DNA of 64,000 nt from contig JAZDJR010000018.1 in NCBI GenBank assembly GCA_043803815.1, forward strand, positions 32,001 through 96,000, given 5' to 3'. The stretch comes from Candidatus Micrarchaeota archaeon (lineage in GTDB: Archaea; Iainarchaeota; Iainarchaeia; Iainarchaeales; JAGVWC01). This document shows, in pieces, positions 6,403-50,261 of the stretch. Position 1 is the first letter of the stretch. Every line of letters begins with the position of its first letter. Both the position numbers and the translations under genes were made by a program. The notes under the pieces are model-generated. The model was not told the origin of the DNA and made no database searches. It worked only from the letters and a program-made list of their open reading frames with translations.

Positions 6403-6476
6403 AAAAGTTTTTCCCAGGTTTCCGATTTTGGCAAAAGCCAAAAAGGGCCCATTCGAACATAGTTCGAATCGGGTTT
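6403..6476. repeat. Two-hairpin dispersed repeat family A, copy 1 (copy 2 at 50190-50261)
   Basis: About 60/74 identity to copy 2 by manual alignment; stems TTTTGGC/GCCAAAA and ATTCGAAC/GTTCGAAT show compensatory substitutions. Confidence 0.8.
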
Positions 6477-6523
6477 TGCCGATATGCAAAAAAGCTGTTT
6501 TCGAGGTAATTGGAGGAAATAGT

Positions 6524-6880
6524 ATGGTCACGATGAAAGATTCGATTCCAAAGGAATTGCAGCAAAAAGTTTTGGAACTGATTGAAAAGTCGCGCAAAAC
6601 CGGAAAGGTCCGCGTCGGCGTAAACGAAGTTACCAAAATGATTGAGCGCAACCAGGCCAAATTTGTGGCGATTGCGCAGGATGTTACTCCCGCGGAAATC
6701 GTTTTGCATTTGCCCGCGATTTGCAAGGAAAAAAATATTCCGTTCGGCTTTGTTTCCAGCAAAAAAGAGCTGGGCGAAAAAGCGGGGTTAAAAGTAGGCA
6801 CCAGCGCTTTGGCAATAGTCGAAGAAGGCGAGCACAAAAAAGAATTCGAGGCTTTGGGGAAAAAATTCGCCGAAATGTAA
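6524..6880 (+). CDS. rpl7ae: 50S ribosomal protein L7Ae (eL8)
   Basis: GKVRVGVNEVTKMIER..AKFVAIAQDVTPAEIVLHLP.IC.EK.IPF..V.SKKELG; SD GGAGG upstream. Confidence 0.96.
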   Translation: MVTMKDSIPKELQQKVLELIEKSRKTGKVRVGVNEVTKMIERNQAKFVAIAQDVTPAEIVLHLPAICKEKNIPFGFVSSKKELGEKAGLKVGTSALAIVEEGEHKKEFEALGKKFAEM

Positions 6881-6965
6881 TGGTTCATCGTAGCGAGGAA
6901 AAACAAAAATAAAATTCAATTCGAAAAATTAGTGTTTTTTTCGGGTTAAGAATCGGTGAAAGAAT

Positions 6966-7184
6966 ATGAGCGATAAGGGAACTCCGGCAGAAGTCGTTGA
7001 AGTAATCAAAAAAACCGGCATGCACGGCGAAGTCACGCAAGTGCTGTGCAAGATTTTGCAGGGGCCCGAACAGGGACGCGTCAAGCGCCGCAACGTGAAA
7101 GGCAACTGCCGGAAAGGCGACGTTTTGATTTTGCTTTCAACCGAACGCGAAGCAAAGGAAATCAGCGGAAAGAGGGGCGGTTAA
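6966..7184 (+). CDS. rps28e: 30S ribosomal protein S28e
   Basis: PAEVVEVI..TGMHGEVTQV.C.IL.G...GRV..RNVKG..R.GDVL.L..TEREA. Confidence 0.96.
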   Translation: MSDKGTPAEVVEVIKKTGMHGEVTQVLCKILQGPEQGRVKRRNVKGNCRKGDVLILLSTEREAKEISGKRGG

Positions 7185-7409
7185 ATGGCCAAATGCAGTT
7201 TTTGCGGAACGGATATCCACCGCGGCACGGGCAAGATGTACGTCAAAAAAGACGGCGTGGTTTTTTATTTTTGCTCGCTTAAATGCGAAAAAAACCTGCT
7301 TAAGTTGGGCCGACAGCCCCAAAAGACCAAATGGACCGGCGCGTTTCATACGCAAAAGCAGTTTGTCCAAAAGACCGCTGCCAAAAAAGCCAAGAAAGAA
7401 GGAACGTGA
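7185..7409 (+). CDS. rpl24e: 50S ribosomal protein L24e
   Basis: CSFCG..I..GTGKMYVKKDG.V.YFCS.KC.KN. Confidence 0.96.
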   Translation: MAKCSFCGTDIHRGTGKMYVKKDGVVFYFCSLKCEKNLLKLGRQPQKTKWTGAFHTQKQFVQKTAAKKAKKEGT

Positions 7410-7877
7410 ATGCACGAGCGGACCTTGGTTATCATCAAGCCCGACGCGATTCAGCGCGAACTGGCCGGCGAAATCATTTCCCGCATAGAACGCAAAGGCC
7501 TCAAAATAATCGCCATGAAAATGGAACTCTTGCCCATTAAAAAAGTGCAGGACCATTACGCGCACTTGGCGGGAAAAACTTTTTTTGACGAACTGGTTTC
7601 GTATATGTCTTCCATTCCGTCCATTTTGATGATTATTGAAGGAAAGGATTCGGTTGCGGTGGTTCGGCAGATGTGCGGAGTAACCAATGCGCGCCAGGCC
7701 GGAACAGGGACGATTCGCGGGGATTTTGGCATGAGCGTCATGAGCAATCTGGTTCATGCTTCCGAAAACAGCGACGCGGTCCAAACCGAAATCAACCGGT
7801 TTTTCAAGGCCGGCGAAATCCACGATTTTGAAAAAATTTCCTTTGAAACAATTTATGCGGCCGACGAGCGCGAGTGA
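7410..7877 (+). CDS. ndk: Nucleoside diphosphate kinase
   Basis: ERTLVIIKPDA, GTIRGDF, NLVHAS catalytic His. Confidence 0.96.
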   Translation: MHERTLVIIKPDAIQRELAGEIISRIERKGLKIIAMKMELLPIKKVQDHYAHLAGKTFFDELVSYMSSIPSILMIIEGKDSVAVVRQMCGVTNARQAGTGTIRGDFGMSVMSNLVHASENSDAVQTEINRFFKAGEIHDFEKISFETIYAADERE

Positions 7878-7884
7878 GGCGTTT

Positions 7885-8313
7885 GTGACCGAAGTCCGCG
7901 TTCAAAAACTTTCGCCGGACGCGAAAATTCCCGCTTACGCCAAAATTGGCGATGCAGGGGCCGATTTATATTCTAATGAAACCGTTTCTTTTTCACCCGG
8001 AGAGCACCGCTTGGTTTCAACGAGTATTGCGATGGCGGTTCCCAAAGGCCACGTGGGATTGATTAAGGATCGAAGCAGCTTGGCCGCCAAGCACGCATTG
8101 CATTGTCTGGGCGGGGTTATTGACGAGAATTATCGCCACGAATGGAAAATAATTATGATTAATTTGGGAAAAGAAGCCGTAACGCTTTCAAAGCATGAGC
8201 GCGTGGCGCAAGTGTTGTTTGTTCCGGTTTCGGTTGGAAACTTTTCTGAAACTGCGCAACTGGACGCAACTAACCGCCCTGACGGCGGGTTTGGTTCGAG
8301 CGGAAAAAATTGA
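7885..8313 (+). CDS. dut: Trimeric dUTP diphosphatase
   Basis: AGADL, DRSSLA, GVIDENY, ERVAQ, R..GGFGSSG motifs; GTG start inferred. Confidence 0.92.
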   Translation: MTEVRVQKLSPDAKIPAYAKIGDAGADLYSNETVSFSPGEHRLVSTSIAMAVPKGHVGLIKDRSSLAAKHALHCLGGVIDENYRHEWKIIMINLGKEAVTLSKHERVAQVLFVPVSVGNFSETAQLDATNRPDGGFGSSGKN

Positions 8314-8322
8314 GGCAAAATT

Positions 8323-8772
8323 ATGTCGGATGAAAAAAGAATCGGTGTTGGCGTCGGCGTCATGATAATGAAAAACGGCAAGGTCTTGCCTGGAAAGCGC
8401 CATGTGGACCCCGCCAAGGCAACCAGTCTGCTCAAGGGAGCCGGAACTTGGACAATGCCCGGCGGAAAAATGGATTTTGGCGAATCGTTTGAAGAATGCG
8501 CAAAGCGCGAAACTCTGGAAGAAACAGGAATCAAGCTGAAATCGGTTCGGGTGCTGTGCGTTTCCAACGACCGCGTTCCCGACGCGCATTTTGTCACCAT
8601 CGGACTTTACTCCGAGGATTTTTCGGAGGAACCGCAAGTTATGGAACCCGACAAGATAACGGAGTGGCACTGGTTTGATTTGGACCATTTGCCAAGCCCG
8701 ATTTTTTTTCCGAGCCAAAACGTGCTTGAAAAATACCATGCGAAAAAATTTTATTTAGGGGAAAAAAAATGA
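8323..8772 (+). CDS. NUDIX hydrolase (MutT/NUDT15-like)
   Basis: Nudix box GGKMDFGESFEECAKRETLEETG; EPDKITEWHWF. Confidence 0.9.
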   Translation: MSDEKRIGVGVGVMIMKNGKVLPGKRHVDPAKATSLLKGAGTWTMPGGKMDFGESFEECAKRETLEETGIKLKSVRVLCVSNDRVPDAHFVTIGLYSEDFSEEPQVMEPDKITEWHWFDLDHLPSPIFFPSQNVLEKYHAKKFYLGEKK

Positions 8773-10523
8773 TTCGAAAACCGATTATTACCGTGCTTGG
8801 TCACGTGGACCACGGAAAAACGACTTTTCTTGACCGGATACGCGGAACGTCGGTCGCTTCGCGCGAAGCAGGCGCGATTACTCAGCATATCGGCGCGACG
8901 GAAGTGCCGATTAAAGTCGTTAAAGACCTGGCGGGGTCCTTGATGCAACAATACAAGTTTGATTTGCAGATTACGGGACTGCTGTTTATCGACACGCCGG
9001 GCCACGAAGCATTTACGAATCTGCGCAAGCGCGGCGGCAGCATCGCGGACCTTGCGGTTGTAATCATCGATATTAATCAAGGGGTACAGCCGCAGACGAT
9101 TGAAGCCATCGATATTTTGCGCACGTTTAAGGTTCCGTTCATTGTCGGCTTGAACAAAATCGACAAAATGCCCGGCTGGAATCCGAGTTATGGAAGCATT
9201 ACCAACGGCTTGAAACTGCAGTCCGAATCCCTGTTGAATGCGCTGGATACCAAATTATACGGGGTTGTCGGAAAATTGTACGAAATGGGGTTTCAGGCGG
9301 AGCGATTTGACCGGGTTGCGGATTTTACCAAGCAGATTCCAATTATTCCGATTAGTTCCAAGCTGGGCGAAGGATTGCCGGAAATGCTGCTGTTTTTGGC
9401 TGGGCTTTCGCAAAAATTTTTGGAAAAAAAACTGACGATTCACGTGGAAGGTCCCGGCAAGGGAACGATTCTGGAGGTAAAAGAAGAGCGCGGCCTTGGA
9501 AAAACAATCGACGTGATTTTGTACGATGGCTCGCTTAAAGTAGGCGACGAAATCGTTTTGGGCGGAAAAAACGGCGTGATTAAAACAAAAGTCCGCGCCT
9601 TATTGGAACCCAAGCCGCTGAACGAAATGAACGATTCCAAGGAAAAATTCAACAATGTCAAGGAAGTCCATGCGGCTTCCGGAGTTAAAATCGCGGGGCC
9701 GAATCTGGACGATGCCTTGGCGGGTTCGCCGCTTTTGGTAGCCAGCGACGGAAGCGAGGAACAATGCATTTCCGACGAACTCAAAAGCCTGAAAATCGAG
9801 CAGGAAAGCGTCGGGCCAATTATCCGAACCGATGCTTTGGGAAGCCTTGAAGCCTTGGTGAAACTGGCGTCGGAAAAAGGGCTGAAGCCGCGCAATGCGG
9901 ATGTTGGGGATGTAAGCCGAAAAGACATTTTGGAAGCCGCTGCCGTCAGCCAGTCGGATCGGTTTAAAGGCGTTATTTTGGCGTTTAACGTCAAGGTTAA
10001 TTCGGACGCGGAAAAGCAGGCCCGTTTGTCCAATGTCAAAATATTTAAGGGCAACGTTATATATCGTATATTGGAAGAATTCGACCAATGGGTCAAAACC
10101 GAAAAAGACGCGGAAAAACAAGCCCGCCTGAAAAATCTGGTTTGGCCTTCCAAAATCCAATTATTGCCCAATCACGTATTTCGCAATTCCAAGCCCGCGA
10201 TTGCGGGTGTTCGGGTGCTTTGCGGCCGGCTCAAAGTCAACGCCTTGCTGATGAAGCCGAACGGAGAGCGCGTTGGAAAAGTTTTGGCGATTCAGTCCAA
10301 CAATGAAAGCGTGGAAACCGCGCAGGCCAACCAGGAAGTGGCGGTATCCATTGAAGACGCGGTGATTGGAAGAGGACTCGAGGAAAAAGACGAGCTGGTT
10401 GTTTTCCTGAGCGAAAACACGATTAAAGCGCTTGAAAAAATTCGGGACGATTTGTCCGAAGACGAAATTGAATTAATCAACGAGATGAAAAAAATAAATC
10501 TGAAGCGAGGAGATAACAAATGA
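8769..10523 (+). CDS. infB: Translation initiation factor IF-2/aIF5B
   Basis: IRKPIITVLGHVDHGKTT, EAGAITQHIGA, DTPGHEAF, NKID. Confidence 0.97.
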   Translation: MIRKPIITVLGHVDHGKTTFLDRIRGTSVASREAGAITQHIGATEVPIKVVKDLAGSLMQQYKFDLQITGLLFIDTPGHEAFTNLRKRGGSIADLAVVIIDINQGVQPQTIEAIDILRTFKVPFIVGLNKIDKMPGWNPSYGSITNGLKLQSESLLNALDTKLYGVVGKLYEMGFQAERFDRVADFTKQIPIIPISSKLGEGLPEMLLFLAGLSQKFLEKKLTIHVEGPGKGTILEVKEERGLGKTIDVILYDGSLKVGDEIVLGGKNGVIKTKVRALLEPKPLNEMNDSKEKFNNVKEVHAASGVKIAGPNLDDALAGSPLLVASDGSEEQCISDELKSLKIEQESVGPIIRTDALGSLEALVKLASEKGLKPRNADVGDVSRKDILEAAAVSQSDRFKGVILAFNVKVNSDAEKQARLSNVKIFKGNVIYRILEEFDQWVKTEKDAEKQARLKNLVWPSKIQLLPNHVFRNSKPAIAGVRVLCGRLKVNALLMKPNGERVGKVLAIQSNNESVETAQANQEVAVSIEDAVIGRGLEEKDELVVFLSENTIKALEKIRDDLSEDEIELINEMKKINLKRGDNK

Positions 10524-11011
10524 ACATTGTAATATCAGATCCCAAACTGCGCAAGGCATATTCCAAAAAAGTGGACGAAGTGCCGCCAGCGTTTTTGAAC
10601 AAAAAAATCGGTTCCACGGTTTCTTTGGATTCCGTTGGGCTGCACGGATTTGAGGCCAAAGTCACGGGCGGTTCGGACAAGGAAGGAACCCCCATGCACC
10701 CCGCGATGGAAGGAAGCGGCCGCAAAAAAATTTTATCCCATAAAGGAACCGGCTTTCGCCAGACCAATAAGGGCGAGCGCCGGCGCAAAAGCGTCCGCGG
10801 CAACACCGTGTTTAAGGACACGAGCCAGATCAACGTGGTGCTGACCAAAGGCGATTCGCAAAAGCTTTCCGAACAATTCGGCGGCCGGCCCAAAACCGAC
10901 GAAAAGAAAGTGTCGGTCAAGGAAGAAATGATTGCGCGCTCTTTAGCCGCGGTCGGAGACGATGCGGCAGCCGAAGCAGCCAAAACGATAAAGGGAAAAA
11001 CGAAGGGATAG
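10520..11011 (+). CDS. rps6e: 30S ribosomal protein S6e
   Basis: KVTGGSDKEGTPM, GERRRKSVRGN. Confidence 0.95.
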   Translation: MNIVISDPKLRKAYSKKVDEVPPAFLNKKIGSTVSLDSVGLHGFEAKVTGGSDKEGTPMHPAMEGSGRKKILSHKGTGFRQTNKGERRRKSVRGNTVFKDTSQINVVLTKGDSQKLSEQFGGRPKTDEKKVSVKEEMIARSLAAVGDDAAAEAAKTIKGKTKG

Positions 11012-11036
11012 TCCCTTTCCCTTTTTTATTTTTTTT
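11003..11036 (+). terminator. Hairpin plus T-tract terminator candidate after rps6e
   Basis: AAGGGA-TAG-TCCCTT followed by long T runs. Confidence 0.45.
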
Positions 11037-11100
11037 AAAAAAATTTTGGCGTTTAAAAAAACGCGTTTATTCCTGCGTTTTGCAAAAAATTGGTGAAATA

Positions 11101-12381
11101 GTGCCGGTTAAATCGAAAAAAGCATCTGAAAAAAAACCCGCTTTGAAAAAAAACGCGAAAGCGGCTTCCGCTTTGGCCAAAGCGATCTTAAGCAGCATCC
11201 AGCCCGTCGTTAACATCGGCATGGTCGGCCACGTCGACCACGGAAAGACGAGCCTCACGCACGGCTTGACCGGAAAATGGACGGACACGCATTCCGAAGA
11301 AATCAGGCGCGGCATTTCAATCCGCCTGGGCTACGCGGACGCGGTTATTTATGAATGCACGGCTTGCATGGGAAGCGAACGGTTTTCCACCGGCGCGACC
11401 TGCCTCAATTGCGGAAAAAAAGGAACCGAAGTCCGCCGGTTTTCGATTGTGGACGCTCCCGGCCATGAAACACTGATGACCACCATGCTTAGCGGCGCCG
11501 CGGTAATGAACGGCGCTATTTTGGTGATTGCGGCCAACGAACCCTGCCCGCAGCCTTCGACGACCGAACATATGATGGCTTTGAAAATTGCCGGAATTCA
11601 ACACATTATTGTCTGCCAAAACAAGGTGGACCTGGTGTCCAAAGAACTGGCTTTGGAAAATCACGGCCAGATTGTTTTGTTTTTAAAAGAACACGGCTAT
11701 GAAAACCTGCCCGTGATTCCGACCGCCGCGCATTTTAAAACCAATCTGGACCTGCTGATTGAAGCAATTCAAAAATATATTCCAACGCCGATTCACCATG
11801 AAAAAGACGCTTTGCGCCTTGTGGTGCTCCGCTCGTTTGACATCAATAAGCCCGGCACCTTGCCTGAAAAACTGCATGGCGGCGTGGTGGGCGGAAGCAT
11901 TGTTTCCGGAATTTTGAAAAACGGCGACGAAATCGAAATCAGCCCCGGAATTGAAAACGGCTTGATTAAAACAAAAGTAGTGGGAATTCAGACCACGTTT
12001 GGTTCCCTGGAAAAAGCGGTTCCGGGAGGTTTATTGGCGATTGAAACCACGCTCGACCCGAACCTGACGAAAAACGACCAAATGAAAGGCCAAATCGTCG
12101 CCAGTATCGGAACATTGCCCGAACCGGCCTTGAAATTAAGTTTAAAACTGTTCCCGTTCAAAAGATTGGTTACCGACGCTGTTTTTGACCTGAAACCAAG
12201 CGAAACCGTTGTTTTGACGGTTGGAACCATGACTGCCGTCGGAACCATTATCAAGATTTCAAAGGATACCGCAAGTCTGGTCCTCAAAAATCCCGTGGTG
12301 GTCGAACAGGACCAAAAAATCGTGATTTCAAAACGGCACAAAACCGGCTGGAGGCTGGCGGGCTATGGCATCCTTGCCTAA
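11101..12381 (+). CDS. eif2g: Translation initiation factor 2 subunit gamma
   Basis: QPVVNIGMVGHVDHGKTS, HSEEIRRGISIRLGY, Zn knuckle, DAPGHETLM; start codon uncertain. Confidence 0.95.
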   Translation: MPVKSKKASEKKPALKKNAKAASALAKAILSSIQPVVNIGMVGHVDHGKTSLTHGLTGKWTDTHSEEIRRGISIRLGYADAVIYECTACMGSERFSTGATCLNCGKKGTEVRRFSIVDAPGHETLMTTMLSGAAVMNGAILVIAANEPCPQPSTTEHMMALKIAGIQHIIVCQNKVDLVSKELALENHGQIVLFLKEHGYENLPVIPTAAHFKTNLDLLIEAIQKYIPTPIHHEKDALRLVVLRSFDINKPGTLPEKLHGGVVGGSIVSGILKNGDEIEISPGIENGLIKTKVVGIQTTFGSLEKAVPGGLLAIETTLDPNLTKNDQMKGQIVASIGTLPEPALKLSLKLFPFKRLVTDAVFDLKPSETVVLTVGTMTAVGTIIKISKDTASLVLKNPVVVEQDQKIVISKRHKTGWRLAGYGILA

Positions 12382-12733
12382 AATCGCGCTGGATACCAAC
12401 ATTGTATTGGAACAGCCAAGTCGATTGGAAGAACTGCGGGAAGTATTCGGGAACAAAATCGAAATTGCGATTCCAAAGCAGGTGGAAGAAGAACTCGGGG
12501 TTTTGGGAAACCGAAGCCAAAAAAACAAAAAAAAACTTGCGATTGCAAAAATGATTCTTAAAAAGGAAAACGTGGAAACAATAACGGTGAACGCCAAAAA
12601 CGCGGACGACGCATTGGTCGCCCTGTCCAAGGAAGGGTTTGCGATTCTGACCATGGATTCCAGATTAAACCAAAAAATCTTGAGGGAAAACGGCTCGCTG
12701 GTTGAAATCGAAAACAAAAAAATCAAAAAATAA
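12365..12733 (+). CDS. PIN-domain protein (Fcf1/Utp24-like)
   Basis: IALDTN, V.EEL, ADDAL, ILTMD..L; conserved position between eif2g and rpoE1. Confidence 0.8.
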   Translation: MASLPKIALDTNIVLEQPSRLEELREVFGNKIEIAIPKQVEEELGVLGNRSQKNKKKLAIAKMILKKENVETITVNAKNADDALVALSKEGFAILTMDSRLNQKILRENGSLVEIENKKIKK

Positions 12734-12880
12734 AAAGAAATCGGCTAAAACAAAAAAAAAGTTAAAAATTGAAATAAAAAAATAAAAGGAATGCAAAATA
12801 AAAAAAGCAATCGAATCAAAAAAGGAAAAAAACAAAATTGAATTAATTTTTTTAATAAATAGGAAAAAAGAGGTATCAAA

Positions 12881-13504: not shown

Positions 13505-13516
13505 GGTGAAACAAAA

Positions 13517-30885: not shown

Positions 30886-31317
30886 ATGCGCCGCTGGCTA
30901 AGACAAAAATGGGGTTCGTTTTTGGCCAATCACCGCCAAAAAAAGCAGGAACGTGCACAACCGGCGCGGTTTGTCCCGACCGAGCGGTTTAATTTTTTGT
31001 TCAGAGAAATCGAGCGGCTGCATCTTCGGCTTCCCGAAAACGGACAAAGTGTGCTTTACCGGTTAAACGATAACGACTTGTCGCAGATTATTGCGGTTTG
31101 TTTTCCGGATAGCCATCCGTAGCAGCTTTCAAAGCCGCTGACCCCTAAAATTTTGGAAAACCGGCAATGGATGCTGGATGGGGCCCTCAGTTTTTTTGAG
31201 CGGCAATTGCAGGGGGAAGCGCCTGTGCCCCTGAATAAACCGGGTGTGTCTTACAGCGACCCGCTGCATTCGTATGTGCTGGAGTTTGCCAAACGACAAC
31301 GGGTTTTGAAAAAAATG
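30886..31317 (+). pseudogene. Probable disrupted orphan gene (in-frame TAG at 31120-31122 and a later frameshift)
   Basis: Arg/Lys-rich ORF MRRWLRQKW... continues in frame past TAG (QLSKPLTPKILENRQW) and then in a shifted frame (ALSFFERQLQGE...LHSYVLEFAKRQRVL). Confidence 0.4.
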
Positions 31318-31818
31318 TCATTCGACTAGTTCGCTTGGATTGCGGACCTTGGCTATTTTTTTGGTTAAAAAATACCAGACCGCGAGGATTAACACCGCGG
31401 TTGAAATCCAACTCGCGGTATGAACAATGTCCGCGGTTGCGATTCCATAGTGTTTTCCCATCCACAAGACAACATACAGGCGAAGCAGGTTCAGCACAAA
31501 CAATACGAACCCGCAGGCAATCCACAGCTTGAGCTTGGTTTTCAAATCGGGTTTTTTTACTGCAAAAATGACGGCGGCCAGTATTGCTGCGCTGGCAAGG
31601 CCCGTGCACTGGTTGTCGATTTGAAAAACGCCGCTTGGAACAAGGATTTGGTTTTGGGCAAACGGCAGGTTAAGCAGGCCGGCTTCAAAGGATGCAAGCG
31701 AATCGTTCAGCCGGGAAAAATCCGCGATTACAATCAGGAATTGAAGCAAAAAATAAACCAAAAAGAATTTGGCTAAAAAAAGCAGGAGTATTTTTTGTTT
31801 TTTGGAAAAAAATTGCAT
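31318..31818 (-). CDS. Exosortase/archaeosortase family protein
   Basis: Catalytic triad pattern: QCTG (Cys), NLLRL (Arg), DIVH (His) in a multi-TM protein. Confidence 0.85.
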   Translation of the reverse strand: MQFFSKKQKILLLFLAKFFLVYFLLQFLIVIADFSRLNDSLASFEAGLLNLPFAQNQILVPSGVFQIDNQCTGLASAAILAAVIFAVKKPDLKTKLKLWIACGFVLFVLNLLRLYVVLWMGKHYGIATADIVHTASWISTAVLILAVWYFLTKKIAKVRNPSELVE

Positions 31819-43629: not shown

Positions 43630-43648
43630 GTCCGAAAATTGCAAAAAT

Positions 43649-44005
43649 TTATGCCTTGCGCTTGACGATTTTAATCATGCTGGGCGTAACGAGCACTTTT
43701 TCGTTGGATACCATGGCCAAGTCGCCTTTCATGCCTTCGACCTGCATTCGCAGGCTTCCGACGAGTTCGCGAAGCCGGACAACGTTGCGTTTTTTCATTT
43801 CACCGATGTTCAAAAGGATAAAGTTCCCCATTTGGAGTTCTTTAACCGCGTTTTCCACGTCTTTTTCCGTGGTGAGTTCGACCGGTTTGACGAGCGCTTT
43901 GGCGTCCGCGTACTGGTCTTCTTCGGTTTCGGTGTCCATGTTGTTAAGAAATTCATCCATGTCTACATCGTCTTGTCGACGAAAAACTTTTTCCAAAAAA
44001 GTCAT
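43649..44005 (-). CDS. sepF: Cell division protein SepF (DUF552)
   Basis: VKP..L....D.......L..GN..LLNI, GDLA.V....VLVTPS.IKI. Confidence 0.85.
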   Translation of the reverse strand: MTFLEKVFRRQDDVDMDEFLNNMDTETEEDQYADAKALVKPVELTTEKDVENAVKELQMGNFILLNIGEMKKRNVVRLRELVGSLRMQVEGMKGDLAMVSNEKVLVTPSMIKIVKRKA

Positions 44006-44223
44006 TGTTTTCACTCCCCTATAAAAAAAACTATTCTATTTTACTATGCAAAGTATATTTTAAACTATTTGTTAATCAAACCGCCAAAAGAAGCCCGAAA
44101 ATAGCAGAGTCTACATAAAAAAAATGTAAAAAAGATAGTTCGAAAAACCAACCTGCATTATCGGAAGTGGTTTTGTTCCACAACTCCAAGTTGTTTTTAA
44201 TTGTTTGAATCATCAAACACTGG

Positions 44224-45453
44224 ATGACTTTTACTTCGGATTCTCCCAATTTGTTTGACCGCCTGTACAAGGACCAAAAAACGGTTTTTTTGGACAAAAA
44301 CGCGATTTCGCCGCATTTTGTTCCCAGCCATCTGCCGTTTCGCGAGAACCAATTAAACGAAATTTCGCAGATTTTTTCCGTTGCGTTAAGCGGAAAAAAA
44401 CCCGGCAATCTTTTTTTGTACGGCAAGCCAGGCGCGGGAAAAACCGCGGTATGCAAGCGCGTTTTATCCCAATTATTGGAGTTTGGCAGGAACAAATCGC
44501 TTTCGGTAAGCGGAACCTACATCAATTGCCGGACGCACAATTCCAAGTACCGCGTGCTTTCCAAAATCGTCAAGGACCTGTTTTCCGAAGAAAGCTTTTT
44601 GGGCTATTCGGCGTCGTTTATGTACGACAAAATGCTGGACGGCATTTCCAAAAACAAATTTTCATACATTGTTATTTTGGATGAAATCGACAAAATCAAG
44701 GACTTAGACGAGCTTGTTTATTCGCTTACGCGCTCAAACGACGAGCTTTCCGCGGGCAGCGTCGCGATTACGGGAATTTCAAACAATGTTTTTTTCAAGG
44801 ACCGATTGGACCCGCGAAGCAAGTCAAGCCTGTGCGAGCACGAAATGGTTTTCAGCCCGTATAACGCCGAAGAGCTTCGCCAAATTTTAAACGAGCGCGT
44901 CAATGTCGCGTTCAAGCCCGATTGCATCGAGGAAAGCGCGGTTAATCTGGCCGCGGCAATGGCGGCCGGCGAAAGCGGCGATGCGCGCCAAGCCGTCATG
45001 CTTTTGCAAAAAGCCGGCGAACTGTGCGATGCCAAAAAGCTTGCTAAAATAACGGATGTTGAAGTGCAGGCCGCGAAAAAAAAAGTCGAGGAAGAAATTA
45101 TTTTGAACATGATTGCGACTTTGCCCAAGCATCAGCAATTATTGCTTTTGGCGATTGCCAATTTGTCCGTGCAAAAGCGTTCGCAGCAGCGCATCGCGGG
45201 GGATAGCCGGGAACAGCCCTTGTTTTCGGGGGAAGTATACGAGGAATACGCGAAAACCGCGAAAAGCCTTCGGGAATCGCCGGTGTCTTCGCGCTGGTAC
45301 CGCCAGTACGTTTCCGAACTGGAAATGTTCGGCTTGTTGATTACCGCGGCGTCAGGCCAGGGCATCCGCGGAAACACGCGGCTGATTAAATTGAGCTTTG
45401 ACCCCAAAAAAATAATGGACGCCGTGCAAAAAGAAATCGCGGCGAACAATTAG
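44224..45453 (+). CDS. cdc6: Orc1/Cdc6 replication initiator
   Basis: LP.RE.Q, YGKPGAGKT (Walker A), ILDEID (Walker B), LDPR.KSSL, GDAR, wHTH with ELEMFGL. Confidence 0.95.
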   Translation: MTFTSDSPNLFDRLYKDQKTVFLDKNAISPHFVPSHLPFRENQLNEISQIFSVALSGKKPGNLFLYGKPGAGKTAVCKRVLSQLLEFGRNKSLSVSGTYINCRTHNSKYRVLSKIVKDLFSEESFLGYSASFMYDKMLDGISKNKFSYIVILDEIDKIKDLDELVYSLTRSNDELSAGSVAITGISNNVFFKDRLDPRSKSSLCEHEMVFSPYNAEELRQILNERVNVAFKPDCIEESAVNLAAAMAAGESGDARQAVMLLQKAGELCDAKKLAKITDVEVQAAKKKVEEEIILNMIATLPKHQQLLLLAIANLSVQKRSQQRIAGDSREQPLFSGEVYEEYAKTAKSLRESPVSSRWYRQYVSELEMFGLLITAASGQGIRGNTRLIKLSFDPKKIMDAVQKEIAANN

Positions 45454-45473
45454 GAAAAGGATGTGATAAGAAA

Positions 45474-45785
45474 ATGGAAAAATTCTGCCAGGTTTTAATC
45501 AGCGCCACAAGCAAAAAAGAAGCCGACCGGATTTCGGACAATTTGGTCCAAAAACGGCTGGTGGCGGGTTCTTTGATTCTTAAAGGTCCTTCGCGTTACT
45601 GGTGGGAAGGAAAAATCGTTGAAAAGGAATATTTCAATGTGCAGGCGTTTTCGGTTTTCAAAAACAAGGACAAAATTATTTCTGAAGCAAAAAAAGGCCA
45701 CAGCGACGAGTGCCCCATCATCGCTTTTTTTGCCATGGACGGGAACGCGGATTTCCTGAAATGGATTCGAGAATCGGTCGAATAA
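45474..45785 (+). CDS. cutA: Divalent-cation tolerance protein CutA
   Basis: EA..I...LV..RLVA, S.YWWEGKI, H..ECP.I, GN.DFL.WI. Confidence 0.85.
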   Translation: MEKFCQVLISATSKKEADRISDNLVQKRLVAGSLILKGPSRYWWEGKIVEKEYFNVQAFSVFKNKDKIISEAKKGHSDECPIIAFFAMDGNADFLKWIRESVE

Positions 45786-45825
45786 CTTCGGTTTTTCAGG
45801 TCCCGATTCGGTTCGGATAAGTGGT

Positions 45826-47973
45826 TTAGCCGTACCGCGAACCGCGACTTTCGCGCTTTTTTTGTCCCAGATTCTGCTTGATTTGTTCCGCGATTTTTTC
45901 TCCGCCCAAAAGGCGTCCCAGGTCCGCAACGTCGATTTTTTGCAGGTCCAAGACCGTTCGCACGTTGTTTTGGAACAGGCGCCTGGCGCGTGACCGCCCG
46001 ATGCCGCGCACTTCGCATAGCATCAAGAGTTCTTCTCGCACGCCGAACTGCAATCGCTTTCGCAGTTTGGCCAGTTTTTCGGGATGATTTTCCAGTTTTA
46101 GCAGCTGGCAGAGTTCAAAAGCCGCGTATCCCAGCCAGTCGCAAACCAATAGTTTGGAGCGCAAAATGCCCGGCGCCACGTTAAACTCGTCCGCAAGGCG
46201 GCTGTCGGGGGTTTCGTTTATCCATTGCTCGAAAACTTTTGCTGTGAAAAACTTTTTGGCCAGATTCGGGTCGGCATAGAGTTCGACGTTGATGTTAACG
46301 GGAATTTCGTCCTGCGAGTTGACAAGTTCTTCCAAAAGCCGCGGTTCCATTTTTTTAGGGTAATTCAGCAAAGGCGAAAGTTCGCCGGTATTGGAAAACA
46401 AAAACAGGTAAGTCATCGCGGAAAACGGCCTTTTTTGCTTTAGCGCGGCAATCAGACCGGCCGCGGAAAGCGGGTCGAGGTACAGTTCGGATACGCGTTT
46501 TCCAAGTTCGGTGGCTTCGAATCTTTTTTCGCTGGATTTTACGAATCCGAGTTCTTCCAGTTCAACCAGTATCCCGCTTAGTTTGGACAAAAGTTCTGTG
46601 GTTTGCTTGAACTGGAACGCGTAAAATGTCTTGGAAAAAAAATCTTCCAAAGACTGCAAATCAAACACGAAATTGGTCGCAATCGCGGCCAGCAAGTGGG
46701 TTCGCAGCACGGGTTCAATCGACAGGCGCGACTCGACTTCTTCGATTTCGCCGCGGACATAATTTTCCATTAAATCGTCGATTTCGGATTCGCTGGACGC
46801 CAAAATCACGGCTTCGCCGGCAACGTCAAACTTGGGCCTTCCCGCGCGACCCGCCATTTGCTTGTACTCGGAAACCGAAATGCGCGTGGAACCGCCCCAG
46901 GAGCCGTCGTAGCGGTGCAGAGAGGGAATAATTACGCGAAACGCGGGTACGTTAATTCCGGCGGCCAAAGTAGGCGTTGAACTGATTAGTTTAATCCTGT
47001 TTTTTTTAAACGCGGATTCGACGATGCGACGCTGTTTTTCAACGAGTCCCGCGTGGTGAAACGCCGCGCCGCGGAAAACCAACTGCGCGAGTTTTCGGCA
47101 CTGGTCGGTCGGCTGTTCCAGCGCATTGAGAATGGCAACGGACGCTTTTTGGAGAATTTCGCGGTCCTGTTCCGAAAGTTTTTTTTCTGTAATCGCGGAT
47201 AATTTTTCTGCGAAACTTTCGCTTTTTGGCCGGCTGTTGGCAAACACGAGGCATTGCTTGTTTTTTTGGTTTAATGTGTCTGCAACGATTTTGGCCACGC
47301 TTTCTTTTTCAGATGCGGCAATTTTTTCGACGCGATTTTCAAATTTTATTTTGCCGTCAAAATAAACGCCTTCGTCAAGTGTGACGGGGCGATAATCGCT
47401 TTGCACCAAATCCGCGGACAGCCAGTCCGCAATCTGGCTGGAATTGGGAATAGTCGCGCTTAATGCCAATACGCGAAGCTGCGGATTGATTAGGCGCAGT
47501 TTGGTAATTGCCATTTCGACTGCGGGGCCGCGGTCGCTGCCCATGATATGCACTTCGTCCACAACCAGCAATCCGACTTGCGAAAGCCAGTCGGCTTTGT
47601 GGCGAAGCAAGGATTCCAGCTTTTCGGTCGTGGAAAAAATCAAATCGTAGTTTTTCAGGTACTGACTGCTGGAATCAAAGTCTCCGGTGGAAATCGCCAT
47701 GCGGATTTTGAGTTGGCCAAACTTGGTTTTCCAGTCGGAATAATGCTCGCTGGCCAATGCTCGAAGCGGGCAGGTGTAAACGACTTTTTGTTTTTTGTTC
47801 AAAATCGAGTCAAGCGCGCAGAGTTCGGCAACCACGGTTTTGCCCGAAGCTGTGGGCGCGGCTACGACTACGCTTTGGTCAAACAGGCGGCTGGAAAGCG
47901 CCTTTTCCTGCATGGGATTAAACTTTTCAAAGCCGTTGGCTTGGCGAACCAACTCGGGAATGTCAAAGGTCAT
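45826..47973 (-). CDS. hel308: Ski2-like ATP-dependent DNA helicase Hel308
   Basis: APTASGKT, VVDEVH, LSATI.N, FHHAGL, TPTLAAGIN.PA, QMAGRAGRP, C-terminal HhH. Confidence 0.93.
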   Translation of the reverse strand: MTFDIPELVRQANGFEKFNPMQEKALSSRLFDQSVVVAAPTASGKTVVAELCALDSILNKKQKVVYTCPLRALASEHYSDWKTKFGQLKIRMAISTGDFDSSSQYLKNYDLIFSTTEKLESLLRHKADWLSQVGLLVVDEVHIMGSDRGPAVEMAITKLRLINPQLRVLALSATIPNSSQIADWLSADLVQSDYRPVTLDEGVYFDGKIKFENRVEKIAASEKESVAKIVADTLNQKNKQCLVFANSRPKSESFAEKLSAITEKKLSEQDREILQKASVAILNALEQPTDQCRKLAQLVFRGAAFHHAGLVEKQRRIVESAFKKNRIKLISSTPTLAAGINVPAFRVIIPSLHRYDGSWGGSTRISVSEYKQMAGRAGRPKFDVAGEAVILASSESEIDDLMENYVRGEIEEVESRLSIEPVLRTHLLAAIATNFVFDLQSLEDFFSKTFYAFQFKQTTELLSKLSGILVELEELGFVKSSEKRFEATELGKRVSELYLDPLSAAGLIAALKQKRPFSAMTYLFLFSNTGELSPLLNYPKKMEPRLLEELVNSQDEIPVNINVELYADPNLAKKFFTAKVFEQWINETPDSRLADEFNVAPGILRSKLLVCDWLGYAAFELCQLLKLENHPEKLAKLRKRLQFGVREELLMLCEVRGIGRSRARRLFQNNVRTVLDLQKIDVADLGRLLGGEKIAEQIKQNLGQKKRESRGSRYG

Positions 47974-48046
47974 ACTATTATGGTTGACCGTTGCTTTTTT
48001 TGGGGGTTGGTCAAGCACCTGAATTTGGGAGTTTTGGGGCAAGGGA

Positions 48047-48292
48047 TTACAACTCGCTTTGGGTTTCGCTTGTGTTTTGAAGCATGACGAACTCGTAGGC
48101 TTTTTGCAGGGCAAGGACTGCTTTGGGCAGGTCTGCGGGTTTGAAGGAAGAGCTGGATTTCCATTCCCCGCTTTCGGTTTTGTATCGCTTTTCAATCGAA
48201 ACCGAAAAATACGGCTTTCCTTCTTTGCCCGCGTTTTCCCAAATCGCGGCGGTTATGCCGGCCACCGAGATTTTTTGGATTGGGGCAGTCAT
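48047..48292 (-). CDS. Small putative ssDNA-binding protein (PC4/Whirly-like fold)
   Basis: ITAAIWEN...YFSVSIEKRYK...GEWKSSSSF...DLPK; strong SD AGGAGGTGA. Confidence 0.65.
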   Translation of the reverse strand: MTAPIQKISVAGITAAIWENAGKEGKPYFSVSIEKRYKTESGEWKSSSSFKPADLPKAVLALQKAYEFVMLQNTSETQSEL

Positions 48293-48323
48293 TTTTTCAC
48301 CTCCTTTTAAAAAATAAAAAAAA

Positions 48324-48446
48324 TTAGGCGGTGATCCTAATCAATCGCCCCAGCCGGCCTGTTTTTTGGAAGGGTTCGGTTTGGATGCTTTGCAGCAGGC
48401 GAAACACGTTAAAGTCCAGGTTTAATTCTTCGATAGTATTTTTCAT
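48324..48446 (-). CDS. 40-aa small ORF (MKNTIEELNLDFNVFRLLQ...)
   Basis: SD GGTGA at normal spacing from the ATG; co-oriented upstream of the PC4-like gene. Confidence 0.4.
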   Translation of the reverse strand: MKNTIEELNLDFNVFRLLQSIQTEPFQKTGRLGRLIRITA

Positions 48447-48691
48447 TACATCACCGGAAACTAGTTCGCTTGGCTTGCTTTTAAATCGGCGGAGGCGGGT
48501 CATTGCCGGTGAAAACCGGTGCATTGGCAGGGTTTGCCGTGCAATGAATTCAGCGGCAATGACGCCCCAAAAAAGCTAAGAATCCAGGCATACAATAGTG
48601 GACTAAGAAATAGCCGAACCAATCGGACAAAGCGGCTATTAACCGGAAATCGGAAGCCGCCAAAAAACGTTCTTCAAAACCCCCTTTAAAT

Positions 48692-48712
48692 ATATATGCC
48701 TTAAACATATAT
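48692..48712. promoter_or_regulatory. Palindrome ATATATG-N7-CATATAT overlapping a TATA-like element upstream of the second toxin-HTH pair
   Basis: Perfect 7-bp arms right after TTTAAATA. Confidence 0.5.
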
Positions 48713-48777
48713 GTGCGCTTTTCGGAGCGCTTGTAAGGGGTGATGGATAGTGACTAAAACGACAAGGGTTTTTGACA

Positions 48778-49092
48778 ATGAAAGCAAGACAAGTACTCAA
48801 CGAGGTGTTCACCCCGAGCAAAAACTTCGCCTGCCGATTGCTGGCTTGGGAGGTTCGCGGTGACAAAAGATTTTCCGAAAACTTCAAGTACGCTTTTGTG
48901 CTGCTCCACGAAAACGAAAGGGTGCTTGCCTACGACAATTGCGAGGGAAAAGGCCACCACAGGCATTATGGCAAACAACAGGGACCAAACACCGGCACGC
49001 CCGAAATAAAATCGAAAAAAGACATTGAAAAACTCGCAAGAACTTTCATGACCGAAGTGACCGCAATAATAAAAAAAACCAAAAACGAATAA
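48778..49092 (+). CDS. DUF6516/TumE-like putative toxin
   Basis: FKYAFVL......VLAYDN..GKGHHRHYG. Confidence 0.75.
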   Translation: MKARQVLNEVFTPSKNFACRLLAWEVRGDKRFSENFKYAFVLLHENERVLAYDNCEGKGHHRHYGKQQGPNTGTPEIKSKKDIEKLARTFMTEVTAIIKKTKNE

Positions 49093-49142
49093 AAAAAATG
49101 AAGCCAAAAAAGAAATTATAATAAAACTCTATAATGATGATT

Positions 49143-49583
49143 ATGAAAGAAGAAATGAAATTCAATAAGGTCTTAATCCGAATAGCGTCTTTTGAACAAG
49201 TAATGCAAGAGACCGTTGAAACCCTGTGGAATGTCAAAAAAGGAAAAAAGGCCAAGGCCGCGCGGAAAACCCTCACTTTTCCGGACCTTGAAACCCTGCG
49301 GGAAATCCTTACGGATGAACGAATCCGCCTGCTCCAAACCCTGCACACCCAAAAACCCAAAAGCGTCTATGAACTCGCCAAAAAACTGGGCCGCAAATAT
49401 CCCAACGTGTTCAACGACGTAAAAAAACTCGAGAACCTGGGACTCGTCACGCTAAACCTAGAAAAAAACAAGTCGGAACCCACGGCAACCTACAAAAGCC
49501 TCAAAATCGAAATACCCCTGACAATTCCCATACTAAATCGCTTCAAGGTTCAACAAGCCAAACACAATCGCGTCATTCCTTGA
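49143..49583 (+). CDS. HVO_A0114-like HTH DNA-binding protein (putative antitoxin)
   Basis: LTF.D...L..ILT..R..LL......P.S.YELAK.LGR.Y.NV..DV..LE.LGLV. Confidence 0.8.
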   Translation: MKEEMKFNKVLIRIASFEQVMQETVETLWNVKKGKKAKAARKTLTFPDLETLREILTDERIRLLQTLHTQKPKSVYELAKKLGRKYPNVFNDVKKLENLGLVTLNLEKNKSEPTATYKSLKIEIPLTIPILNRFKVQQAKHNRVIP

Positions 49584-50100
49584 TGCCATAATGGGCCAAA
49601 AGCTGTCCCGTATGCCAAGCCTTGGCGTCGGCTTTGGAAAAACCCAGTTTGGAAAATGTTACGAACAATTGTTTTTCGCTCGTGGCTTCGATTTCCAAAA
49701 ATAAAGGGATTTTTTTGAAGGCACCTAAGAATTTGTCCAGTTCGATTCGGTTTTTTCCAAGGCGGTACGATTCGCGTTTTTTGGAATACGACAAAACCGG
49801 CCTGAATCCAAGGCGCCGGATAAATCTTTGGCAGTCGCTCCAGTCGGATACTTCAAATTCGATTTCTTCGGACGAAACCGACTTTTGGGTCGGCAGGCGC
49901 GTTTTGAACGTCAAAAAAGTTTTGGCGGTAGTTTGGCGCAGGCGCAGCACCTGGCCGTTTTTGGACAAGTGGCGGCCGGGAAAATCGAAATAAATCGTTT
50001 TTAGGACTCCTGAAAAAATCTTTTTGGCTTTGAGCTTTTTCAGGCGAGCCAAAACCTGCATTTTGTTTATTTCCAAAACCTTAACTTCGATTTCGTTCAT
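49573..50100 (-). CDS. CYTH-domain protein (class IV adenylate cyclase-like)
   Basis: N-terminal EIEVK (ExExK), LRLR, LTFK, E.E..V, KKRESY, FLEIE. Confidence 0.88.
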   Translation of the reverse strand: MNEIEVKVLEINKMQVLARLKKLKAKKIFSGVLKTIYFDFPGRHLSKNGQVLRLRQTTAKTFLTFKTRLPTQKSVSSEEIEFEVSDWSDCQRFIRRLGFRPVLSYSKKRESYRLGKNRIELDKFLGAFKKIPLFLEIEATSEKQLFVTFSKLGFSKADAKAWHTGQLLAHYGIKE

Positions 50101-50189
50101 CTGAAAACCAGAAAATGCTTTGTCAAAAAATAATTTCGCGAAGCGAATTTTCTTTTTTCCCGAAGGGCTTTTTTCGCAAACATTTTCCC

Positions 50190-50261
50190 AAAAGGTTTTC
50201 CGAGGTTCCCGTTTTTGCCAAAGGCAAAAAGGGCCCATTCAAGCGCGCTTGAATCGGGTTT
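50190..50261. repeat. Two-hairpin dispersed repeat family A, copy 2
   Basis: Homologous to 6403-6476; stems TTTTTGCC/GGCAAAAA and ATTCAAGC/GCTTGAAT. Confidence 0.8.

Follow-up and report, generated by a model that had tools for sequence, protein, structure and literature searches.

A dispersed, structure-conserved repeat of a DPANN archaeal lineage in gene spacers, tRNA introns and the rpl7ae leader

A two-hairpin element occurs at positions 6403-6476 and 50190-50261 of the window, the whole 64,000-nucleotide stretch of DNA analysed here, and raises the question of whether its conserved structure marks a non-coding RNA motif or a REP- or MITE-like mobile repeat. The nearest counterparts of the host GluRS are found in Candidatus Micrarchaeota and Iainarchaeum MAGs. 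A sequence-only reading of the window had posed these two alternatives, leaning towards a DNA-level element, and had described a match of about 60 of 74 nt between the copies, three compensatory pairs, and an invariant linker and tail. All of these descriptions hold. Global alignment of the two copies gave 60 identical columns out of 74, compared to a mean of 38 and a maximum of 48 for 2000 random 72-mers from the window. One compensatory pair lies in hairpin 1 (GGC/GCC in copy 1, GCC/GGC in copy 2) and two in hairpin 2 (ATTCGAAC/GTTCGAAT in copy 1, ATTCAAGC/GCTTGAAT in copy 2), and the linker AAAAAGGGCCC and tail CGGGTTT have the same letters in both.

Copy 1 lies, as had been proposed, on the sense strand in the leader of rpl7ae (ATG at 6524), downstream of a class-I aaRS gene (4525-6234). 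Its match to model R1 (6408-6478, 82.5 bits; all features of this copy are given on the forward strand) includes a 5’ module (6408-6421; T-run, CCCAGG, TTT), which in the fold forms the 5’ strand of an outer helix and pairs with the 3’ end; the fold has 15 outer pairs, versus 4.2 with the 3’ flank shuffled. Hairpin 1 (6421-6447) has the base TCC/GGG, an unpaired G followed by an A.A mismatch, the stem TTTTGGC/GCCAAAA and the loop AAAA, and hairpin 2 (6448-6473) the base CCC/GGG, the stem ATTCGAAC/GTTCGAAT, the loop ATA and a bulged C at 6470. From the sequence and fold, a third hairpin (TTTTGC-CGATAT-GCAAAA) and the right-end motif AAGCTGT occupy 6474-6498. The inserted unit, delimited by sequence, fold and a gap in the related contig X2, spans 6397-6498; it starts with an inverted target copy, CTCGAAA, from about 6399, and its end, GCAAAAAA(A)GCTG, recurs in the C17 and C23 copies and on a separate X1 contig.

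A K-turn-like hairpin at 6366-6394 of the forward strand (ACC-GAT-GA-C-GAAAG-TGAGA-CTTTC-GA-GGT; K-turn assigned by eye) belongs to the host context outside the repeat. K-turns in L7Ae leaders have been described (PMC5539422, PMC6298567), and in the relatives G001 and G002, which have short rpl7ae leaders, this same motif stands directly before the ribosome-binding site. Searching for direct repeats around copy 1, we identified an 11-bp repeat, TTTCGAGGTAA, with a left copy, the duplicated target, at 6386-6396 and a right copy at 6499-6509, the latter followed by GGAGG (6512-6516) and the rpl7ae start codon; a repeat of equal length was reached by 0 of 200 shuffles. On contig X2, from a related metagenome, 6382 is joined to 6497, skipping 114 nt of copy 1. 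Contig X1, approximately 92% identical, retains the insert, and G001, G002 and G003 have no R1 match in their rpl7ae leaders. Copy 1 is a recent insertion: 113-114 nt were added immediately 3’ of the K-turn hairpin in the rpl7ae leader, and 11 bp of the target were duplicated.

Copy 2 likewise lies where it had been placed, with a minus-strand gene on either side: a 221-aa ORF (50282-50947), for which no Pfam family was found, and a CYTH-domain gene (49573-50100). It occupies the spacer after the ORF. Its R1 match on the forward strand (50194-50263, 78.7 bits) contains a 5’ module (50196-50207; TTTT-CCGAGG-TT), hairpin 1 (50208-50233; CCC, a bulged G, TTTTTGCC-AAA-GGCAAAAA, GGG) and hairpin 2 (50234-50258; CCC, ATTCAAGC-GC-GCTTGAAT, a bulged C, GGG), and 22 of its 22 modelled pairs are Watson-Crick. 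The extra hairpin previously noted after copy 2 is present at 50259-50277 (TTTCTTTT-GCG-AAAAGAAA, from the sequence), as the third hairpin of this copy, with 4 nt between its end and the 221-aa ORF’s stop codon (50282-50284). We additionally identified 34 nt, comprising AAAGGGCCC, the entire hairpin 2 and TTT, that are identical between copy 2 and the copy on contig C8.

The conserved core of the element, approximately 52 nt, consists of two adjacent hairpins in mirror arrangement, each closed by a 3-bp C-N-C/G-N-G helix and carrying one bulged base. Read 5’ to 3’, the first half runs C-N-C, bulged base, 8-bp stem-loop, G-N-G, and the second C-N-C, 8-bp stem-loop, bulged base, G-N-G. The core mostly sits within a four-helix unit of 85-115 nt, in which the 5’ module (a T-run and a CCNNGG-like sequence) pairs with a 3’ GGCYG end, and a T/A-rich third hairpin follows the core; the predicted fold of this unit is a four-helix junction. 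Complementarity between the 5’ module and the 3’ end amounts to a helix of 5-9 bp rather than a long inverted repeat. Across 31 loci, this outer helix has at least 4 pairs around the core in 22, and a mean of 6.6 pairs versus 3.2 with the 3’ flank shuffled.

In line with the selection on structure suggested earlier from two copies, covariation is very strong in two separate alignments, A5 and A8, the latter a repeat of the test with 60 loci absent from the earlier work. Paired cells, a figure affected by the preference of the model search itself for well-paired copies, amount to 97.4% in A5 (71.1% in shuffles, and at most 55% in slid controls) and 97.4% in A8 (72.1% in shuffles). The covariation scores are 0.630 versus 0.157 shuffled for A5, and 0.585 versus 0.141 for A8, each reached by 0 of 500 shuffles. 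Both sides have changed in 21 of the 22 pairs of A5, and the covarying middle base of the 3-bp base helices in A8 is CG in 61 cases, GC in 33 and AU in 9.

We investigated the distribution of the repeat in the genome and its relatives, as the sequence-only reading had proposed. That reading had the element present twice, 44 kb apart, which is correct for the window, but too low a count for the genome (1.08 Mb), which contains at least nine loci. Of 61 relatives, 20 have matches at E<=1e-3; the number per genome, counted over both strands, runs from 0 to 36, and copy number across close relatives ranges from 0 to approximately 20. In a sample of the phylum, 13 of 151 genomes have matches at E<=1e-6. 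The family is a dispersed repeat of one DPANN archaeal lineage, found in gene spacers, tRNA introns and tRNA flanks. Rfam gave no match at gathering score across the entire window, none at E<=1 in the copy 1 region (5900-7000), and none around the other copies except to tRNA models, in keeping with the earlier description of the motif as undescribed. From bacteria, small structured repeats are familiar; in the literature searched, we found none described from DPANN archaea.

Copies within tRNA genes, or at most 100 nt away, account for 25 of 95, and the other 70 are away from any tRNA predicted by ARAGORN, which misses long-intron tRNAs. Reversed copies occur in a 107-nt intron of tRNA-Glu(CTC) and a 168-nt intron of tRNA-Tyr(GTA), and a forward copy in the tRNA-Arg(GCG) intron of G003. 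All three fill or occupy canonical-position introns, and a further reversed copy is placed by ARAGORN in an intron of G001 tRNA-Leu(AAG). The copy in tRNA-Glu has the right end of its unit next to the 5’ splice site. The host tRNA introns have relaxed helix-bulge-helix borders, built from the anticodon arm and ends specific to the intron, not from the repeat. Around copy 1, a scan for BHB motifs gave only weak T/A-rich candidates, none at the insertion borders; on the minus strand, one candidate of the weak or low-complexity class (8+4+4 pairs) spans copy 2. ARAGORN predicts only 22 tRNAs in the genome, and standard tRNA finders miss genes because the introns are long and repeat-filled. We rejected a tRNA or split-tRNA half at copy 1, as the T-loop-like GTTCGAAT is not conserved in copy 2, ARAGORN found no tRNA in the entire window, and Rfam gave no tRNA match near copy 1.

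New sites have received copies of the unit, and orthologous sites differ in whether they contain it. The G003 tRNA-Arg(GCG) intron contains the outer helix, core and third hairpin, and its G000 counterpart is a simple hairpin; a syntenic region of G041 is without two copies found in G015. Two loci in G026, set in unrelated flanks, show no difference over 83 columns that start at the T-run and stop at the end of the outer helix, and nested copies occur at C36:278-399 and L042:465-588. Significant flanking direct repeats were identified in 4 of 32 copies (10, 11, 11 and 20 bp), and 27 of the 32 have no direct repeat of at least 8 bp beyond the shuffle level; a fifth significant repeat was rejected as a target duplication, being the end of an adjoining short module. 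A classical transposase footprint would not show such variable repeat lengths, and no target duplication of fixed length was found. Copies within the genome have mostly diverged through compensatory changes and are not near-identical, a pattern equally compatible with long-term selection on each copy and with an active-copy lineage.

The type of pairing bears on whether DNA or RNA is recognised. Across 35 loci (four weak rows from L054-L056 omitted) we counted 736 Watson-Crick, 9 G-U, 6 A-C and 12 other pairs, and across 62 further copies 1284, 5, 17 and 20, respectively, so that G-U pairs are not commoner than other mismatches; for comparison, 12 tRNAs of the same genome have 238 Watson-Crick and 18 G-U pairs (7%). 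The pattern of the element is symmetric under reverse complementation, and both orientations relative to host transcripts are represented among the copies. Since pairing is Watson-Crick only on both strands, the pattern symmetric and both orientations used, the hairpins are probably recognised as folded DNA. We consider the element to be a dispersed, non-autonomous, structure-conserved mobile repeat acting at the DNA level, similar to REP/BIME or MITE sequences, with a probability of roughly 0.6. Its hairpins would be selected and recognised as single-stranded or extruded DNA rather than as RNA, by a putative trans-acting enzyme, and copies would persist where they do little harm, in gene spacers, tRNA introns and tRNA flanks. 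Of the two possibilities raised at the outset, the DNA-level one is thus favoured by insertion polymorphism, by the occurrence of both orientations and by strict Watson-Crick pairing without G-U excess. Transcripts such as tRNA precursors and mRNA leaders must nevertheless include many of the copies, and template-switch correction between hairpin arms could produce perfect stems, partly replacing selection.

A role in the transcripts themselves, as a host cis-acting element for 3’ ends, processing, stability or insulation that is transcribed together with tRNAs and mRNAs, would explain why many copies start a few nt past a stop codon or tRNA 3’ end. The C17 copy starts 10 nt past the thermosome stop, copy 2 likewise ends close to a stop, and copies in L015, L060, L061, L048 and L044 lie 10-34 nt 3’ of tRNAs. 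Such an element, possibly spread by duplication and retained for function, as with bacterial REP hairpins protecting mRNA ends, would also accord with the T-runs opening the unit on either strand, the sense-strand copies in the rpl7ae and rpl1 leaders, and the structure conserved across families. We nonetheless regard it as rather unlikely, given the copies in both orientations relative to host transcripts, the lack of G-U excess on either strand, unlike the genome’s own tRNAs, and the orthologous sites in close relatives without the element. Furthermore, a simple terminator scan leaves the core hairpins unflagged, and the T5-T7 runs would be harmful in tRNA introns if they were efficient terminators.

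The intron copies raise an alternative that we consider improbable: an intron-like RNA element with relaxed bulge-helix-bulge borders, removed by the tRNA splicing endonuclease from any transcript containing it, even from the rpl7ae leader, so that its spread would be that of archaeal introns. The three canonical-position introns and the tRNA-Leu copy, the splice-site position in tRNA-Glu amid relaxed-border host introns, and the candidate motif spanning copy 2 point this way. However, the tRNA splice motifs come from the anticodon arm and intron ends, the copy 1 candidates are weak and away from the insertion borders, 70 of the 95 copies lie away from predicted tRNAs, and strict Watson-Crick pairing on both strands is unexpected for an element acting only as RNA. 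Least probable is an independently transcribed family of small ncRNA genes with a cloverleaf-like fold, despite the four-helix junction topology of approximately 100 nt, the strong covariation and the frequent tRNA-gene neighbours. By reading, we found no consistent TATA promoter-like sequence at a fixed upstream distance, and copies inside introns and adjoining stop codons and start regions, the use of both orientations, the lack of an Rfam match and the variable copy number in close relatives all argue against it.

For the DNA-level mobile repeat, a further possibility, more speculative and rather unlikely, is that it inserts as a four-way-junction element at or near tRNA genes, with target duplications of 10-20 bp. 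Landing in existing introns or in anticodon loops, it would create, enlarge and reshuffle the tRNA introns of DPANN archaea, and fragmentation of tRNA genes there could also follow. How introns arrive is still open according to a 2026 preprint (10.64898/2026.10.13.758758), and insertion of this kind, if true, would be a concrete route. The family joins three usually separate matters, namely intergenic hairpin repeats, tRNA intron content and insertions into regulatory leaders, and the leader hit by copy 1 is the K-turn leader of the gene for a K-turn-binding protein. Should the element be mobile as DNA and take up residence in the introns and flanks of tRNA genes, archaeal intron growth and change would have a testable route, and the movement would also illustrate the tolerance of selfish DNA in very small genomes. 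Strong covariation by itself, moreover, can falsely point to a functional RNA.

The HUH (TnpA/RAYT) partner suggested earlier was not borne out. Of the 20 genomes with the element, 8 have Y1_Tnp (PF01797), versus 10 of the 41 without it; no PF01797 match was found in G015, the highest-copy genome searched (36 element matches), or in G003 (15), and the G000 matches, on C21 and at the start of C8, have no element copy adjoining. TnpB shows no clear association (8 of 20 versus 11 of 41). A Pfam family was assigned to 56 of 85 flanking ORFs, none of them a transposase, integrase or reverse transcriptase; we call the element non-autonomous because no mobilising gene was found among these ORFs.

Bacterial REP/BIME/REPIN sequences are short, non-autonomous, extragenic imperfect palindromes with bulges, often arranged as inverted pairs after genes, and their structure is better conserved than their sequence. 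The element resembles them in its core of two mirror-arranged bulged hairpins at non-coding sites, its non-autonomy, its frequent position after genes and its retention of structure over sequence. Unlike REP, it is archaeal, forms a four-helix junction, occurs also in tRNA introns, and has neither a Y1 (RAYT-type) association nor, from reading the sequences, a conserved GTAG-type 5’ tetranucleotide. With MITEs and Rickettsia-type palindromic elements it shares small size, absence of genes, dispersal, presence/absence polymorphism, short terminal complementarity (here the outer helix) and target duplications in some copies; unlike MITEs, it has direct repeats in only 4 of 32 copies, of 10 to 20 bp, no parent insertion sequence with the same ends found among the 85 flanking ORFs, and, within the genome, copies without the look of a recent burst. 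In Thermoproteales, transposed tRNA introns (Fujishima et al. 2010) reportedly have related sequences in common among different tRNAs and vary between relatives in one and the same tRNA. The element is alike in both respects, although the module is not the intron itself, carries no splice motif, and is away from predicted tRNA genes in 70 of 95 copies (long-intron tRNAs being missed by ARAGORN). Finally, integron attC sites are single long imperfect hairpins with an integrase and cassette array, whereas the element has two hairpins and a junction and neither of these; the two would be alike in recognition of fold over sequence, and have in common conserved extrahelical bases and short conserved ends.

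The sequence-only reading held that the two copies of the double-hairpin repeat, copy 1 at 6403-6476 and copy 2 at 50190-50261, agree at about 60 of 74 nt, and a global alignment returned exactly 60/74 identical columns, against a mean of 38 and a maximum of 48 for 2000 random 72-mers of the window. Reading the sequences confirmed that the six differences within the hairpins make up three compensatory pairs, and that the linker AAAAAGGGCCC and the tail CGGGTTT have the same letters in both copies. The gene settings likewise held. On the sense strand, copy 1 separates rpl7ae (ATG at 6524) from a class-I aminoacyl-tRNA synthetase gene (4525-6234), and ORF translations indicate that rps28e, rpl24e and ndk come after rpl7ae. 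Both neighbours of copy 2 are minus-strand genes, a CYTH-domain gene (49573-50100) and, at 50282-50947, a 221-aa ORF to which no Pfam family was assigned. The sole ortholog of the CYTH-domain gene was found in the related genome G002, which has no repeat copy. ARAGORN predicted no tRNA and no Rfam family matched in the window, and split-tRNA halves or a tRNA at the two copies were rejected, as none were found there.

Both copies are real, but their description as an element present twice undercounts the family, which has nine loci in the window's own genome (G000). A fuzzy search and a hairpin descriptor, applied to this genome (1.08 Mb, 36 contigs), identified extra copies with other stem sequences. 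A covariance model built from four copies (R1; 71 positions, 22 pairs) matched C8:31142, C14:41800, C14:45763, C17:1273, C18:38408 (copy 1), C18:82194 (copy 2), C23:9939, C36:10397 and a nested pair at C36:278-399. Extended to relatives, as had been proposed, the search identified more copies, with matches at E<=1e-3 in 20 of 61 genomes, the window's own included. Matches per genome, counted on both strands, ranged from 0 to 36 and were patchy across families; in a sample of the phylum, 13/151 genomes matched at E<=1e-6. The assumed DPANN affiliation of the host was right, since its GluRS most closely resembles the enzyme from a Candidatus Micrarchaeota MAG (59%), followed by Candidatus Iainarchaeum MAGs (46-50%). 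We found no published account of such a repeat in DPANN archaea in a literature search that had most subscription journals outside its reach.

The core consists of two neighbouring hairpins, each with an 8-bp stem that frequently starts with ATT and ends with AAT. A 3-bp helix, C-N-C with G-N-G, closes each of these stems. One base bulges out of each hairpin, from the 5' strand in hairpin 1 and from the 3' strand in hairpin 2, an arrangement that yields the central hexamer G-N-G-C-N-C. In relatives with CGC...GCG-CCC...GGG the joint change is confined to the 5' triplet and the hexamer's first half, and in those with CCC...GGG-CAC...GTG to its second half and the 3' triplet. Because triplets and hexamer halves change in these separate pairs (CGC with GCG, CAC with GTG), a three-way junction with an outer CCCG/CGGG helix is excluded, and the relatives fit only a model of two extended hairpins.

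Covariation, which the sequence-only reading had proposed to check, was strong in two alignments. The first has 71 rows, drawn from 39 loci in both orientations; of its cells, 97.4% were paired versus 71.1% in shuffles, both sides changed at 21 of the 22 pairs, and the covariation score of 0.630 (0.157 shuffled) was reached by 0/500 shuffles; slid controls were at most 55% paired. A second set of 60 more loci from five relatives, chosen from R1 matches blind to context, gave 97.4% paired cells versus 72.1%, and a score of 0.585 versus 0.141, again reached by 0/500 shuffles. Fitting to the model favours pairing in both alignments, a minor concern given the effect size and the slid controls. The bulged bases of the two hairpins were mutually complementary in 23/35 loci of the first alignment (G/C 15, T/A 5, A/T 3), where a rough calculation from marginal frequencies gives about 14; they could form a tertiary pair, or represent the same base shown by each hairpin on its own strand.

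The core mostly sits inside a larger unit, in which a 5' T-run and CCNNGG-like module pairs with a GGCYG-like 3' end, and a T-rich/A-rich hairpin separates the core from that end. Folding of 31 loci with DNA energy parameters gave at least four outer pairs in 22 of them and a mean outer helix of 6.6 pairs, versus 3.2 with a shuffled 3' flank. The predicted structure of the unit is thus a four-helix junction of about 85-115 nt. We additionally identified a short form without the core (T-run, CCNNGG, one T/A-rich hairpin and a GCTG end) in two tRNA-Ser introns of G000 (C29:62449-62588 and C8:~31290-31400) and beside the C23 copy (C23:~10040-10080). Another module, an AACCTTT-hairpin plus GCGAAAAA(A)TACG, is common to the tRNA-Arg(GCG) and tRNA-Pro(GGG) introns of this genome.

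Many copies lie in or near tRNA genes. In the first set, 13/33 loci overlap an ARAGORN-predicted tRNA gene or lie within 72 nt of one, and 12 of the 62 copies of the second set overlap one or lie within 100 nt. The combined 25/95 is a lower bound, because ARAGORN and Rfam missed two intron-bearing tRNAs until their introns were removed: tRNA-Tyr(GTA) (C14:41660-42012, minus strand) and tRNA-Glu(CTC) (C14:45623-45981, minus strand), with introns of 168 and 107 nt, respectively, at position 37/38. ARAGORN predicts only 22 tRNAs in G000, which is 86% complete, so further tRNAs are probably hidden by long repeat-filled introns. A DNA search for tRNA-Glu orthologs in the relatives G001-G003 returned nothing beyond short matches to repeat copies and T-arms. 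A 2026 preprint (10.64898/2026.10.13.758758) treats the arrival of archaeal tRNA introns as a question that is still open. For C7:12985-13079 the ARAGORN call is tRNA-Ile(GAT), its intron placed at position 36; read as a bulge-helix-bulge (outer helix 5 bp, middle 4 bp with one mismatch, inner 5 bp), the locus instead becomes tRNA-Phe(GAA) with a 21-nt intron at 37/38. ARAGORN's sole Phe call in this genome needs an implausible 866-nt intron.

The site of copy 1 could be compared between genomes. A promoter-like TTTTTAAAGG and a K-turn-like hairpin upstream of rpl7ae are conserved in G000, G001 and G002 (window 6308-6394 and the rpl7ae upstream regions L067 and L068). The hairpin, assigned as a K-turn by eye, comprises ACC, a 3-nt bulge, GA, a stem-loop, GA and GGT, and it adjoins or overlaps the ribosome-binding site in three same-family genomes. 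L7Ae is reported to bind such a leader K-turn (PMC5539422, PMC6298567). In the window the hairpin is intact (6366-6394) and the unit is inserted directly 3' of it, between 11-bp direct repeats TTTCGAGGTAA (6386-6396 and 6499-6509); a repeat of this length arose in 0/200 shuffles. Duplication of the target places a second 3' strand of the K-turn beside the ribosome-binding site GGAGG (6512-6516), so that the 5' strand could conceivably find its partner either nearby or on the far side of the insert. At its left end (6397-6406) the insert repeats the neighbouring target in inverted form (CTCGAAA versus TTTCGAG), which makes a hairpin of target and insert across the junction. An inverted left end with a direct repeat on the right is not a classical transposase footprint.

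Copies are present or absent at matching sites. A 256-nt sediment metagenome contig aligns over ~240 nt with 10 differing letters plus 3 gaps; it joins window position 6382 straight to 6497, and 114 nt of the copy 1 region are absent. A 1696-nt groundwater contig, about 92% identical, reads through the insert. In the same-family genomes G001 and G002 the rpl7ae leader is short and has no such unit, and in G003 it contains other modules and no core. The exons of tRNA-Arg(GCG) are near-identical between G000 and G003; the G003 intron contains an outer helix (AAGCCT/AGGCTT), the core and a third hairpin, and G000 has at the matching place a plain hairpin, AACCTTTT-AGG-AAAAGGTT. Two copies of G015 have no counterpart in the syntenic interval of its congener G041, where gene content differs as well. 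At 465-1571 of the G015 locus L042 (G015:C2:25708-28778), two inverted copies bracket about 0.9 kb with small ORFs, and the syntenic G041:C99:4590-5248 has different small ORFs instead.

Further traces of copying were identified within genomes. Two loci on separate contigs of G026 share 83 identical alignment columns, exactly from the T-run to the end of the outer helix, and have unrelated flanks, which delimits the copied unit. Cores lie within the hairpin loop of another core at C36:278-399 and L042:465-588, and in the tRNA-Glu intron the arms of a T/A hairpin enclose the core. Significant flanking direct repeats (10, 11, 11 and 20 bp) were found at 4/32 copies, two of them duplicating an end of the adjoining tRNA gene: on C8 the final 19-20 nt of a tRNA-Ser, in G011 the initial 11 nt of a tRNA. 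A significant 10-bp repeat at L044, with one copy in a tRNA T-arm, was left uncounted as it lies far from the unit borders, and in the remaining 27 of the 32 copies no direct repeat of at least 8 bp exceeded chance. At C23, a 12-bp "direct repeat" was rejected as a target duplication, being really the right end of the adjacent short-form module.

We considered whether the repeat acts as DNA or as RNA. The host might use it in RNA, as a 3'-end or processing element. Some copies closely follow stop codons: that on C17 begins 10 nt past the thermosome stop codon, and 4 nt separate the end of copy 2 from another. Copies also occur in the leaders of the ribosomal protein genes rpl7ae and rpl1 (C36:10397). 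A scan for bacterial-type terminators does not flag the core hairpins, and a reading as terminators of that type was rejected. Alternatively, the repeat might be removed as intron-like RNA; our bulge-helix-bulge scan recognised the real borders of tRNA introns in the relaxed form of the motif alone, and around the window copies it gave many candidates in low-complexity sequence.

Three lines agree with the earlier lean towards a DNA-level element, namely strand symmetry, occurrence in both orientations and strict Watson-Crick pairing. R1 matches nearly every copy on the opposite strand too, because the pattern is reverse-complement symmetric. Relative to the transcript, the repeat is reversed in the tRNA-Tyr, tRNA-Glu and G001 tRNA-Leu introns and forward in that of G003 tRNA-Arg, and copies 5' and 3' of tRNA genes occur in both orientations in each place. 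Stem pairs in 35 loci, leaving out four weak rows (L054-L056), comprised 736 Watson-Crick, 9 G-U, 6 A-C (G-U on the opposite strand) and 12 others, and 62 further copies gave 1284, 5, 17 and 20, respectively. By comparison, twelve intron-less tRNAs of G000 had 18 G-U among 256 pairs and zero other mismatches. An RNA under selection on one strand should accept G-U there and the repeat stems do not, which points to DNA, with the caveat that the search with R1 is biased towards well-paired copies. Even without selection, stems could also become perfect through template-switch correction between the arms of a hairpin.

Candidate mobilising partners were sought among neighbouring genes and across genomes. 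Pfam families were assigned to 56/85 flanking ORFs, all ordinary cellular genes, with no transposase, integrase or reverse transcriptase among them. The HUH (TnpA/RAYT) partner proposed earlier was not borne out, as Y1_Tnp occurs in 8/20 genomes with the repeat and 10/41 without. TnpB was rejected as a partner, showing no clear association (above cut-off in 8/20 with the repeat versus 11/41 without). G015, with the highest copy number, had zero Y1 matches, and G026 zero TnpB matches.

The best-supported explanation is that the repeat is non-autonomous and spreads as DNA. Its hairpins would be kept as a recognition feature for a trans-acting enzyme, and it would persist in spacers, introns and tRNA flanks. 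The REP/MITE-like character first suggested for it is supported, its way of working being similar to that of both kinds of element, but the repeat lacks the RAYT link that defines REP/BIME elements and the fixed-length target duplication that defines MITEs.
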